Counted from the first letter of the stretch, positions 32,596-36,441 are shown. The stretch: DNA of 64,000 nucleotides from Polyangiaceae bacterium (GCA_046351325.1 JAXLYR010000002.1:624334-688333), one strand, 5' to 3'. The notes: a model not told the origin generated them from the letters alone. Program-made: numbers and translations.

Positions 32596-35500
32596 GTGAG
32601 GTTTTACATGGGTGACGTCACGGTCGACATTCCGACTCGATACAGCATATTCGTTCCCAAGCCGCTCTCGCGCCTCAACCTGGGTGGTTGGCAGAAGCGC
32701 GAGGGCGCCTCTCAGTCGCCGAAGTTCGGTTACGACGGTGTATCCATCCAGAGCGAGAAGAGCCTCTTCCTCGACGTTTGGAAGGGGACGTACCTGCAGG
32801 CTCAAGGTGGCTTCGTGGGCCATGCCTCCGAGTGGTTGCAGGTCTCGACGAAGGCGATGACCCTCGCGACGCTGGACAACGCGACGATGGGCGCGGACGG
32901 CATCGTGACGCTGGCCGCGGGCGCGGGGCAGGGGCCTACCTGGACGCTGGACCACGGCGACTCGATGGAGACTGTGCCCTATCTCAATTTGGGCCTGCAC
33001 TATCGCGTAGAGGAGATCCAGAACGGGCTCTTCGAGTTCTTCCGCGGGCGGCGGAAGAAGGATGATCCCGCGATGGAAATGGTCTACCCCCCTGGGCAAG
33101 ATTGGGTGCGGCCGACCGCGGCCACGGCCTTCATGAAGGCAGAGGTGACCTTCGACTCCTCGGACCCGGACAAGGGCGGCGCCGAGTATCGAATGAAGAA
33201 GGGCAACCCGATCGTCCAGGACTCTCCCTTCCTCACGCCCGCGACCTGGGAGGTCACGCCCAAGCCTCTCCGCGGCGGCTTCGAGCTCATGGCCGAGCAG
33301 TCTTGGCAGCTCCTGCACGGTAAGCCCGATTGGAGCTTCCGCGAGGAGACCGACAACAAGGACTGGCGTGATGGGGACGACCCGGCCTCGAAGAAGAAGC
33401 CGAAGAAGGTCGCGCCGTACGATCTCTTCTCGGGCATGAAGGACGTCCGCTACGACCCAGCCTCCCCGGCGAAGAGCGCCCACGGCGTCACGCACGCGCT
33501 CGAGGTGCAGAACGACGTAGACGCCAATCGCGGCGCCGCCACGAGCGACGTCTTGAAGTGGGGCTTCAGCAGCTACTTCTCGCGGTTCGACCCTTATCTG
33601 CTCGTCGATCCGGACGTCGTCCGCTACGACCCGAAGCTCGGGCCGACCGAGAAGCAGATCTGTGTCTTTCTCGCGCACGCCAACAACCTGGCGACGAACC
33701 TCAAGCGTCGAATCGATGTCCTCTACAAGCTGACGAGCGTCGTCAAAGACAACGCCTTCATGAAGCTCGTGACGAACGCCGCGCAGGCGGTCGACGGGCT
33801 CTATCAGCCAGTGAAGGCTTTGCGCAGCAACGTGGAGGCCTGGGCGGGCATGTTCCGCGGCGATCGCGGGGCCTTTCACGAGCAGATGGCCGATGAAGGG
33901 ATCTTCGGGATGGGCAAGCGCGGCCTGCTCTGGCAGAAGCTCGGCGCGAACTCGGCGGCGAAGTCCACGGCCAAGGCTGCTGTGCGCTCCATCGCGCCCT
34001 ACAAAGACCCTACGCCCTCGGCGGTCAACCCGAACGGCCCCGACGCCGACGACGCGAAGAAGGGATTCTACGGCGGAGATCAGCAGTTCGGCGGCGGCTA
34101 CAAACTCCGCAATGGTCATCAACTGGCGGACGGCGACCAAATCACGATCTCCTCCAAGAAGAAGGACGGCACCGTCGTCACCTTCGATACGCCGCCGCTC
34201 AGGCTCTCTGCGACCGCCGCGGTCATCAAGGGCAGCGCGGTCACGAGCTCGAGCTGGATCTACGACGCTGGCACTTACCTCGAGGTCGCGTACGACGGCG
34301 GCGCTTACACGAAGGTAGATCTCACGAACGTTCCCGGCGCGAAGCCGGCCGCGATCTTGGGCAGCCCTATCCTCCAATCGGCGTTCACGGTCCCGGCGAC
34401 CGCGAACACGCTTGTAATCCCGGGCACGCTCGCGGGGACCTCGCTCACCGTGGCGGTCGACGGGGTCGAGACCACGATCGCGTTCGACGAGACGAACTCC
34501 GTCTCGACCGCGACCGTCAGGGCAGCGCTCGCCGACGCCCTACCGGAGCTCGAGGTCTTGGTGGTCGCAGGCGTTACCCTCAAACACAAGAAGTACGGGC
34601 CTGGGGCGCGCATCGAGATCAAGGACTCGACCGCGCGAACGGCGCTGGGCCTGCCGCTTACGGCCGTCAGCGGCGCGGGCATCGACGCGGTGATGGCGTA
34701 TGTCCAGGGGCATCTGCCGAACACCACCTTGGCGAGCAGCGCGCTCAAGTTCCAGTCGACGACGACGGGCACGACCAGCAAGGTCGCGCTCCGCCAAACC
34801 CCGCAAGGTGTGCTCGCGGAGCTCGGTATCTCGGCGACGAGCGCGACGGGCACCGCACCCAAGTTGGCGCGCGACGTGACGGCCGAGGATTTGGTCGCGC
34901 TCTTCAGCCAAGCCCCCGAGGCCGCGGGCGTCGTGAAGTTCACCGCCGAAGATGGTCAAGTCGTCATCACGAGCGAGTTCGCAGGAGATACGTCGTTCGT
35001 CCGCGTCACCAGGAAGACGGGCGAGATGTGTCAGGCGCTCCAGTTCCTCGGTGATCAGCGAGGCGAGGCCGACTACGACGAGGTCCGCGAGCTGCCCGAG
35101 ATCGCGCGCGGGCTCGACGATTTTGACAAGGCGAACACCGAGCTACAGAAGATGCCGGACGACGCCGGCAACCTCGTGCGACCCATCATCGTGCTCGCGA
35201 AGAACGCGATGAACATCGTCAGCAAGGCCTATGGAGTCGCCAAATCGCTCGCGAAGGTCGCGGGGATCAAGCTCCCTTCGTCGAAGGGCTCGATCGGGCT
35301 CATCGCGAACAAGGGCATAAGCTTGGGCACGCCTGACCGCATCGTAGGCGTCGGCGGGCAGGGCATCGTGTTCGTCGCCGACGGCGGCACGGGCGCGCCC
35401 GACAAAGCCAAATACGTCCTCTTGGAGGACACGTTCAATCGGATCATCGGGGGCGACATCTTCGGCAAATACGAGAAGCCGAAGCCCCCGAAGGAGACCA

Positions 35501-36441
35501 CTGGGTTCAAGGTCTTCTCGGACAGCACGACGGACCTCGTCGCGCGGAACACTGCCCACGTGCTCGCGCTCGGTCGCTTCGAGGACGGCAATCGGACGAA
35601 GGGCTCGGGCATCGCGCGCGTCGCTGGCTCGTTCGCTGTCGAGCTCGCGGGGCAAGAGCGCGTGGTCTTGGGCGTCCGCGACGAGAATCTCGGTCGCGTG
35701 GAGGTGCTCGGGCGGACGGTCGCTATCGGCATGACCGACGTCGATGTAACCCACGACAAGTTCGGGCTCGCGGACCGCGGGACCGTGAAGGGCTGGCCGA
35801 CGGATCTGCGCGCGGCGCACGCGCAGACCTCGTCTCTCCTCATGCACTCGACCTCTCAGGCCTGCATGGTCGTCGGCGACTACATGATTCATGTCCGCAG
35901 CAAGGCCGAGGACCTCGCGCCCTTCAACCGGATGATCGACGAGCGCCTCGCGGCGGCCAAGACGGCGGTGAATAGCTTGAAGGCGCGCAGGTCCGTGATG
36001 ACGCTCGCGGGTGTGGACCTCAAGGAGATCAACGCACAGATCGCCGAGGCCGAGGTCGTCGAGCGCCGCGCCCAGAAGGACAAAGACGAGGGCCCGCAGC
36101 TCGCAGACGAGGGCATCATCATCAGCATGCGCGACGCCGCGCGGAGCACCTCGGCTCACAATTGGGCGGCCGAGAACAAGCCTTCCATCGTGGTCAGCAA
36201 GAAGGGGATCACCATCACGACCACGACGAACAAAGACGCCGAGGACGCGACGGCGCGCATCACGCTCGACAAAGACGGCATCTCGATCGTCGTCGGCGCG
36301 AACGGCGCGGGCGCGAAGATCTCCAAAGACAAGGTGGAGCTCCGGAGCGCAAAGAAGCGAGCGGTGCTCGACGACAATCAGCTGACCTACGACGGCTCGA
36401 AGATCGACTTCAGCTCGGCGCAGAAGATCACGCTCGGCTGA
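32596..36441 (+). CDS. giant VgrG-associated protein: unknown ~800-aa N-terminal region followed by DUF2345/VgrG-C-terminal-like beta-helical repeats
   Basis: A 1281-aa ORF with normal composition. C-terminal repeats (SKGSIGLIANKGISLGTPDRIVGVGGQGIVFVADGG and, at the very C-terminus, ITLDKDGISIVVGANGAGAKISKDKVELRSAKK) resemble spike beta-prism repeats. It lies 191 nt downstream of vgrG on the same strand. Confidence 0.7.
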   Translation: MRFYMGDVTVDIPTRYSIFVPKPLSRLNLGGWQKREGASQSPKFGYDGVSIQSEKSLFLDVWKGTYLQAQGGFVGHASEWLQVSTKAMTLATLDNATMGADGIVTLAAGAGQGPTWTLDHGDSMETVPYLNLGLHYRVEEIQNGLFEFFRGRRKKDDPAMEMVYPPGQDWVRPTAATAFMKAEVTFDSSDPDKGGAEYRMKKGNPIVQDSPFLTPATWEVTPKPLRGGFELMAEQSWQLLHGKPDWSFREETDNKDWRDGDDPASKKKPKKVAPYDLFSGMKDVRYDPASPAKSAHGVTHALEVQNDVDANRGAATSDVLKWGFSSYFSRFDPYLLVDPDVVRYDPKLGPTEKQICVFLAHANNLATNLKRRIDVLYKLTSVVKDNAFMKLVTNAAQAVDGLYQPVKALRSNVEAWAGMFRGDRGAFHEQMADEGIFGMGKRGLLWQKLGANSAAKSTAKAAVRSIAPYKDPTPSAVNPNGPDADDAKKGFYGGDQQFGGGYKLRNGHQLADGDQITISSKKKDGTVVTFDTPPLRLSATAAVIKGSAVTSSSWIYDAGTYLEVAYDGGAYTKVDLTNVPGAKPAAILGSPILQSAFTVPATANTLVIPGTLAGTSLTVAVDGVETTIAFDETNSVSTATVRAALADALPELEVLVVAGVTLKHKKYGPGARIEIKDSTARTALGLPLTAVSGAGIDAVMAYVQGHLPNTTLASSALKFQSTTTGTTSKVALRQTPQGVLAELGISATSATGTAPKLARDVTAEDLVALFSQAPEAAGVVKFTAEDGQVVITSEFAGDTSFVRVTRKTGEMCQALQFLGDQRGEADYDEVRELPEIARGLDDFDKANTELQKMPDDAGNLVRPIIVLAKNAMNIVSKAYGVAKSLAKVAGIKLPSSKGSIGLIANKGISLGTPDRIVGVGGQGIVFVADGGTGAPDKAKYVLLEDTFNRIIGGDIFGKYEKPKPPKETTGFKVFSDSTTDLVARNTAHVLALGRFEDGNRTKGSGIARVAGSFAVELAGQERVVLGVRDENLGRVEVLGRTVAIGMTDVDVTHDKFGLADRGTVKGWPTDLRAAHAQTSSLLMHSTSQACMVVGDYMIHVRSKAEDLAPFNRMIDERLAAAKTAVNSLKARRSVMTLAGVDLKEINAQIAEAEVVERRAQKDKDEGPQLADEGIIISMRDAARSTSAHNWAAENKPSIVVSKKGITITTTTNKDAEDATARITLDKDGISIVVGANGAGAKISKDKVELRSAKKRAVLDDNQLTYDGSKIDFSSAQKITLG

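Follow-up and report, generated by a model that had tools for sequence, protein, structure and literature searches.

A giant Myxococcota protein encoded directly downstream of a short VgrG looks more like a spike extension than a toxin

What does a giant protein do when it is encoded directly behind a spike gene of a type VI secretion system (T6SS) and carries no recognisable domain? This question is raised by the open reading frame (ORF) 32596..36441 (+) in a 64,000-nucleotide stretch of DNA from a Polyangiaceae bacterium (GCA_046351325.1, JAXLYR010000002.1:624334-688333), the whole of which is called the window below. A preliminary description of this DNA had presented the gene product as a possible new toxin or adhesin fold delivered with the spike. 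In the current view, VgrG and PAAR proteins make up the T6SS spike, and effectors are attached to them. We hold with moderate confidence that the protein in question (the target) forms a trimer that extends the T6SS spike or is carried on it as a passenger, and that lysine methylation is probable in its relatives; it looks more like a spike extension than like a toxin.

The gene, its family and the adjoining VgrG

The ORF is real. Its translation is stop-free, it has homologues, and it corresponds to the NCBI protein model P0001 ('hypothetical protein U0271_09705, MAG Polyangiaceae bacterium', 1277 amino acids (aa)). The start that had been proposed, GTG 32596 with a product of 1281 aa, lies four codons upstream of ATG 32608 and has to be corrected: since 18 of 18 close homologues align from the latter Met and a GAGG stands 6 nucleotides (nt) upstream of it, the true start is, on this alignment, ATG 32608, with a coding sequence of 32608..36441 and 1277 aa. 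The target has 19 close homologues (identity 36-55%) with long invariant motifs, and a profile search run exhaustively against 1.84 billion representatives yielded 191 proteins at E<=1e-3; this degree of conservation indicates that the gene is under selection, beyond chance. The family is confined to Myxococcota, and the source names seen for its members all read 'hypothetical protein'. Two paralogues of the target, P0004 and P0008, come from the same metagenome-assembled genome, and their contig positions could not be found; the two paralogous loci of this genome are tagged U0271_06800 and U0271_35960. As had been described, the target has no recognisable domain: it matches 0 families in each of Pfam, NCBIfam and PHROGs, and searches against PDB sequences gave no significant match, whether the query was the single sequence or a profile of 19 sequences. 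The absence of a signal peptide was likewise borne out, the N-terminus MGDVTVDIPTRYSIFVPKPL being without a hydrophobic core. The Lys-rich patch that had been noticed, DPASKKKPKKVAPYDL, could be located at residues 258-273 (33379..33426), and its tail KxAPxD[IL]F is conserved in the alignment. The GC content is uniform across the locus.

Directly upstream, 30950..32404 (+) encodes a short VgrG/TssI of 484 aa (Phage_GPD 1.8e-61, Phage_base_V, TIGR03361 6.4e-82) whose TssI/VgrG score is above the curated cut-offs. It consists of a gp27-like hub and an OB fold and has the C-terminus SSGVLVEIDDGV before its stop codon. In an alignment it ends at a NELxFDD-like motif, where the canonical beta-prism begins, and six plasmid-borne VgrGs run 177-488 aa further. 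Similar VgrGs of about 480 aa number more than 1200, are found in Sorangium, Chondromyces, Minicystis and Byssovorax, and are the norm in Polyangiaceae. The spacer between the VgrG gene and the target measures 203 nt (32405..32607, +) and holds the GAGG at 32598..32601, which is a likely ribosome-binding site; a pattern scan of this spacer found one weak terminator-like hairpin at 32584..32600. Because the two genes adjoin on the same strand and this adjacency is conserved in four related loci (L001, L003, L008 and L015), they probably form an operon.

The neighbourhood was compared across ten related loci with usable context, window included. A VgrG gene lies within two genes of the family member in seven of them (the window, L001, L003, L006, L008, L014 and L015); it adjoins directly, as in the window, in the four loci of the presumed operon, is one gene away in L006, and is adjacent but convergent in L014. 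Moreover, PAAR-like (DUF4150-type), DUF2169(-pentapeptide) or DUF3540 genes, one or more per locus, occur in six loci (L003, L006, L008, L013, L014 and L015); the PAAR-like gene of L003, for instance, lies at 6943..7350. Taken together, such genes have recently been defined as the Tvp class III spike-assembly accessories (PMC13373197), and DUF2169 proteins are chaperones of PAAR-like tips (PMC11883445). The set as such (DUF2169, DUF3540 and DUF4150/PAAR-like with vgrG) is present in L014 and L015, partly present in L003, L006, L008 and L013, and absent from the window. The proposal that the protein is delivered with the spike is thus supported by context, namely by the TssI/VgrG gene directly upstream and by the frequency of VgrG in the related loci, together with the spike-tip-like C-terminus described below. 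The target family is unmentioned in a 2026 study of Myxococcota VgrG1b-like islands. As separate observations, large Ser/Thr kinases recur near the family loci (L001, L003, L004 and L015), L014 carries a ThiS/ThiF/Prok-JAB (ubiquitin-like) set beside VgrG at 15805..17802, and the L006 member (JADJRH010000011, 7962..11923) lies in two reading frames, the N-domain in 7962..8756 and the rest in 8468..11923, so that it is either a frameshifted pseudogene or an assembly error.

Modular architecture and predicted folds

The preliminary description had taken about 800 residues as a single region and possibly a new fold, whereas this stretch is a composite of an N-terminal domain and a large, optional, multi-module insertion. 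Module borders were derived from region-specific hidden Markov models (HMMs), built from the alignment and run against all retrieved relatives. The N-domain (residues 1-150; 32608..33057, +) is beta-rich and the most conserved part, with the invariant columns RYSIFVPKPL, DHGD and LHYRVEE..FFRGRR. It is followed by a conserved segment (residues 151-470; 33058..34017, +) that was defined in the alignment and has a low-confidence secondary structure in models made with AlphaFold2 (AF2). Its first part, the 'mid' module (residues 151-345), is a variable Asp/Pro/Lys-rich stretch with the Lys patch and the invariant FSRFDPY at 324-330; its second is a helical module (residues 346-470) for which AF2 predicts three long helices (346-447), again with low confidence. 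A Gly-rich linker (residues 471-504) leads to the central head region (residues 505-830; 34120..35097, +), which is T/V/A-rich (T 12.6%, V 9.8%, A 14.4%) and composed of alpha/beta modules of the FliD D2/D3 or flagellin-IN type. A Lys-rich helical return (residues 831-884; 35098..35259, +), with helices in the AF2 model, precedes Cbeta (residues 885-1100; 35260..35907, +), whose invariant columns read KLPxxKGxIGLxAxxGISLGTPDRIVGxGGxG... The protein ends with a coiled coil (residues 1101-1165; 35908..36102, +), which is variable in sequence and helical in the AF2 model, and with a spike-tip-like beta-hairpin/beta-helix module (residues 1166-1277; 36103..36441 including the stop, +) that terminates in ..AQKITLG.

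The region HMMs identify the N-domain, Cbeta and the tip as the core of the family, Cbeta being present in most members; minimal members of 714-870 aa, P0076 and P0147 (714-729 aa) among them, exist without residues 151-884. That the core is kept and residues 151-884 are dispensable agrees with an axial scaffold on which an insertion is optionally displayed. The N-domain occurs in 88 of the 163 retrieved proteins and is the signature of a wider family of about 90 Myxococcota proteins, and fifty long members share the C-terminal motif ..G.x[IV]K[IL]G or ..IN. In a separate subgroup of about 1060-1100 aa, the N-domain alone is held in common and the different C-terminus ends in D..VF. The copy number of the head module differs between homologues. 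Some 44 unrelated proteins of 1400-1650 aa (among P0096-P0163) have only the FliD-like central modules in common with the target, in several copies each; many of them end in ..VTRD.. and they apparently form a separate family. Residues 151-470 gave no PDB or Pfam relative and are the only part that remains orphan, since 1-150 and 505-830 have identifiable relatives.

For the N-domain, an alignment of 42 sequences was used. Sub-threshold matches to the Pfam family DUF2345 were found in 5 of these 42 members (best 8.6e-4) and in P0125, and three of the five PDB matches of the N-domain profile were VgrG beta-prisms (E 0.4-2). Against the VgrG prisms of Pantoea and Enterobacter, the N-domain scored 16.0 and 9.4 bits, respectively, compared with a maximum of 6.9 in 1800 shuffled decoys. 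Consistent with this, hhalign against a 43-sequence DUF2345 alignment returned P=0.0016 at a probability of 16%, and 16 control comparisons with other regions or targets all gave P>=0.026. These profile comparisons are suggestive of a beta-prism-like N-domain, its membership in the beta-prism not being established, and make it a candidate VgrG-docking or beta-prism-like module.

The structure was predicted with AF2 as a monomer, the input being a 19-sequence alignment. The predicted local distance difference test (pLDDT) reached 80-92 in residues 505-830 and 70-85 in the coiled coil and tip, and stayed below 50 in residues 1-500 and 800-1100. Residues 505-830 are confidently modelled as a head fold of the FliD D2/D3 type, and in this model they have what distinguishes the FliD D2-D3 head domains. 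The central domains are additionally similar to the outer domains found in sheath proteins of myophages, and one family member has a Pfam Flagellin_IN motif. The Thr/Val-rich stretches that had been noticed are indeed present, at 505-830, but they belong to FliD D2/D3-like alpha/beta domains in the model and are not Ig-like; an internal sequence repeat was not detectable in this region (z<=1.1). Failure of the monomer prediction on the parts expected to be obligate oligomers, with success on the globular heads, would fit an oligomer.

The C-terminal modules are less clear. The sole PDB match of the Cbeta profile was the N-terminal domain of Myxococcus CarD (2lt1, E 0.0015), a hint that the fold is a small beta-barrel and not a beta-helix. 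Cbeta was also considered as an OB fold and as a module like DUF3540/TvpC, and hhalign gave no support to either. For the tip, the top weak Foldseek matches were Francisella VgrG (6u9e_B) and the R2 pyocin spike, all at E >=0.087. A profile of 29 diverse tips gave 25 weak PDB matches that were enriched for contractile-injection spikes (Francisella VgrG, phiKZ gp164, gp138, VgrG 9gtr, Pvc8 and AfpX13 among them, besides two other spikes of contractile injection systems (CIS) and a tail fibre). Pfam PF21930, a beta-helical trimerisation domain, was sub-threshold in 6 of the 29 tips, and the terminal tip motif is similar to that of VgrGs. The tip may thus resemble contractile-injection spike tips such as phi92 gp138 and Francisella VgrG; a 'spike-like' C-terminus is supported because several independent weak signals converge, none of them significant singly.

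Could the target instead be a cargo effector? We regard it as unlikely, though deserving of serious attention, that a still-unrecognised toxic activity resides in residues 151-470 or in Cbeta, for instance membrane insertion by the long helices, and that the N-domain is merely a VgrG-loading marker like the MIX, FIX or RIX domains. The place of the gene, directly downstream of vgrG, is typical of T6SS effectors, and the two conserved segments have no known relative and contain invariant polar residues (in the orphan segment FSRFDPY, N360, R367, D370, D396, K403, R406, Q426, D429 and E430). Yet a toxin, enzyme or pore-former family was found in none of the 19 close members, which gave only scattered weak matches. 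The subgroup that has only the N-domain in common and ends in D..VF behaves like marker domains fused to variable toxins; in the family as a whole, the core is the N-domain, Cbeta and the spike-like tip, and it is residues 151-884 that are lost in minimal members. An effector would also call for an immunity protein or chaperone, and the preliminary description had proposed the downstream lipoproteins as immunity or accessory factors. The window gene is indeed followed by a periplasm-facing lipoprotein (36485..37993, +; 502 aa in translation, lipobox LLSAC, Gly-rich linker, no Pfam match), but this protein stands beside none of the homologues of the target, is found by tblastn in the window alone, and is thus locus-specific. 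The second lipoprotein (38008..38775, -) has the lipobox LVLGC and an SLT lytic-transglycosylase motif that stays below threshold at E 0.014; it lies on the opposite strand and is convergent with the target operon. In relatives the role of immunity protein or chaperone would fall to a methyltransferase, and this conserved neighbour is a cytoplasmic enzyme that depends on S-adenosylmethionine and acts on protein lysines, which is not immunity-type. Serratia VgrG1 offers a precedent for VgrG-associated activity without a recognisable toxin domain (PMC13373197). The idea of a new toxin is nevertheless left without a catalytic family, a toxin marker or a conserved immunity-like neighbour in our searches.

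Lysines, methyltransferases and other neighbours

In eight of the ten loci (L001, L003-L006, L008, L013 and L014), the family member is flanked by one or two methyltransferases of about 520 aa. They are full-length homologues of Rickettsia PKMT1/PKMT2 (5dnk, 1.2e-57 and 6.2e-21; also homologous to 5doo) and form two clades, 'up' and 'down', that are about 30% identical. The target itself is rich in lysine: it has 90 lysines (7.0%) against 4.7% arginine, in a genome of 67% GC, and its K/(K+R) is 0.60; most neighbouring proteins lie at 0.17-0.34, although 0.50 is reached by two small proteins of the envelope. Invariant lysines run through 841-893, including K841, K865, K873, K879 and K883. The lysines of most relatives are probably methylated by the neighbouring PKMT-type enzymes. 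Both known substrates of such enzymes, OmpB of Rickettsia (methylated by PKMT1/2) and AtaA of Acinetobacter (by KmtA), are large fibrous surface adhesins (PMC8232902; PMC11784438). In the literature searched, we found no paper linking PKMT-type methyltransferases to the T6SS.

These substrates raise another possibility, that the target is a fibre or adhesin of the producer's own cell surface that is not fired by the T6SS, with lysines methylated as in OmpB and AtaA and FliD-like heads mediating contact. The target does share with OmpB and AtaA that it is large, fibrous and Lys-rich, and its relatives adjoin full-length PKMT1/2 homologues. It differs in that it is no autotransporter and has no signal peptide, other outer-membrane anchor or lipobox, and no methyltransferase lies near the window copy. 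The exposed heads of FliD/flagellin type, the only well-modelled part of the protein, would suit a role in contact, and to this extent the adhesin half of the preliminary proposal is possible; it is the missing outer-membrane anchor and signal peptide that speak against it. In addition, the genes of the family are closely interspersed with those for VgrG, PAAR-like, DUF2169 and DUF3540 proteins, and its C-terminus is spike-tip-like, so that we consider a surface fibre improbable.

In the window, the lipoprotein 36485..37993 stands where homologous loci usually carry the methyltransferase, to which it is unrelated. A downstream ORF of 516 aa was considered as a divergent methyltransferase copy and was rejected, having no similarity to the methyltransferase of homologous loci. 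Marginal tblastn matches to DUF3540 and DUF2169 in the window (E 0.005-0.008) fall inside a GMC oxidoreductase and an LRR protein and are due to chance. A MoxR (bpMoxR, 4.6e-62), VWA and FG-GAP/ASPIC beta-propeller ternary system at 25462..30959 (-) is divergent from the VgrG operon. A gene pair at 39483..42495 (+) encodes a DUF4159 protein (3.1e-30) and a membrane protein that is VWA/GATase1-like, and recalls a BatA-like cluster of the aerotolerance type. A protein with the PSD2-5/PSCyt3 domain set (DUF1585-1595) is encoded at 16146..17966 (-). At 53885..59394 (+) there is a second giant ORF (53885..57733, 1282 aa), without a Pfam match and without paralogy to the target, directly followed by a FadL/TodX-type outer-membrane transporter.

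The target among known spikes

With VgrG/TssI, including the 'evolved' VgrGs that have C-terminal extensions, the target shares its place in a vgrG island, a weakly DUF2345-like N-domain, and C-terminal strands with an ..IKLG ending as at the ends of VgrGs; a trimer and a PAAR cap would be expected for it as well, and its relatives sit with the Tvp class III genes, whose VgrG companions in Proteobacteria have prisms of great length. The prism of Serratia VgrG1 measures 186 A (PMC13373197). In contrast to VgrG, the target is a separate polypeptide without a gp27 hub or OB fold, while the adjoining VgrG is without a prism. Indeed, neither Pfam nor NCBIfam detected the gp27-like hub (Phage_GPD) in the target, and hhalign of the N-domain, Cbeta and the tip against the gp27 region of short VgrGs gave P>=0.33; for the gp5-type OB fold (Phage_base_V), Pfam gave no match and hhalign against the VgrG OB region P>=0.058. 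The target further differs by its large non-prism insertion (151-884) with FliD-like heads, and the prism similarities are all sub-threshold.

The best structural and profile matches of residues 1166-1277 are to hub-less spikes (phi92 gp138, P2 gpV, the R2 pyocin spike, and Francisella VgrG with PdpA, 6u9e), which are also a precedent for hub and needle as separate proteins. Those spikes have 130-250 aa and an OB-fold start or are pure needles, whereas the target has 1277 aa and its tip comes after a coiled coil. A division of hub and needle after the OB fold, as it would be here, is to our knowledge not known elsewhere. TvpC (DUF3540/DUF6484), a partial VgrG mimic that is predicted to be trimeric and axial (PMC13373197), resembles the target in lacking gp27 and in belonging to the same kind of island, but the target is far larger and has no sequence similarity to DUF3540 (hhalign P>=0.037). 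Both L014 and L015 contain a family member as well as TvpC genes, so that the target is not a TvpC replacement. As in axial flagellar proteins, the heads of the target are flanked by long helices; unlike FliD (HAP2), it shows neither FliD_N nor FliD_C, the coiled-coil families of D0/D1, in any of 19 members searched with Pfam, there are no flagellar genes in the 64-kb window, and the heads are inserted into a protein that is spike-like. The target is thus no VgrG (no gp27 or OB fold), no FliD (no D0/D1) and no member of a known effector class (no marker or toxin domain), and on our best reading its way of working comes closest to that of an evolved VgrG's distal part or of a hub-less spike such as gp138, gpV or Francisella VgrG.

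As evidence against its proposal, the preliminary description had named a clear homology to some structural, non-effector family of phage tail fibres or tape measures that has been characterised; none was found, the resemblances being sub-threshold or confined to a single domain. A prophage, tailocin or extracellular CIS remnant unrelated to the T6SS, with the target as tail fibre or central spike, is very improbable: the tip resembles gp138, phiKZ gp164, R2 pyocin, AfpX13 and Pvc8 and the central domains recall myophage sheath proteins, but the target has no PHROG match, the window has no sheath, tube, baseplate, capsid or integrase genes and a uniform GC content across the locus, the adjoining spike gene exceeds the TssI/VgrG cut-offs, and the neighbours of the relatives are T6SS accessory genes.

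As a trimeric extension or passenger of the spike, the target would ride on, or prolong, the truncated VgrG encoded just upstream as a homotrimer and would be exported in a T6SS-dependent manner. The N-domain may dock on the VgrG of 484 aa at its blunt end, or continue it as a beta-prism-like segment. Residues 151-884 would then form an insertion in which the orphan segment and long helices lead out and back and carry the FliD-type heads at the end of a stalk, and residues 885-1277 would come back to the axis with Cbeta, the coiled coil and a needle-tip beta-helix, on which a PAAR-like cap is possible. In most relatives, one or two neighbouring PKMT1/2-type enzymes would probably methylate the many lysines before firing.

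Several points weigh against this model. For a spike extension, a trimer of a 1277-aa protein would be of very large bulk. None of the spike similarities reaches the usual thresholds of significance (Pfam below the gathering scores, PDB profile E 0.015-2.8, Foldseek E >=0.087, hhalign probability 16%), and the structural evidence for the tip comes from a model with a mean pLDDT of 48.5, with 70-85 in the tip itself. When the N-domain was first compared by hhalign, with an alignment of six heterogeneous VgrG C-terminal sequences, the result was negative. With hhalign, Cbeta showed no similarity to the VgrG OB fold, gp27, the beta-prism or DUF3540. As for the context, L004 and L005 have no VgrG within 10 kb, and the PAAR-like, DUF2169, DUF3540 and methyltransferase genes are absent from the 64-kb window. 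Moreover, the short VgrGs of Sorangium and Minicystis sit with PAAR-like and DUF2169 genes without the target family, so that a short VgrG does not require this family and an obligatory 'split VgrG' is weakened as an explanation.

A bolder form of the model is a split T6SS spike in Polyangiaceae and related Myxococcota, with only the hub and OB fold in VgrG, and with the needle, made of a prism-like N-domain and the C-terminal tip, the FliD-like heads and lysines methylated by dedicated PKMT-type enzymes in a separate giant protein. We consider it a long shot; if it were true, methylation before firing could, for example, protect the spike after its injection into eukaryotic or bacterial prey against ubiquitylation or proteolysis, and this would be the first link of protein lysine methylation with a contractile injection system.

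In practical terms, the window gene should not carry a toxin annotation. The family may represent a new spike component or passenger class, made of a modular axial core with optional FliD-like heads, and it is unusual in lying outside the Pfam, NCBIfam and PHROG libraries searched and in its genetic coupling to Rickettsia-type PKMTs. If confirmed, it would extend both T6SS spike architecture and the biology of bacterial lysine methylation, and would offer a way to approach the arming of the T6SS in predatory myxobacteria.

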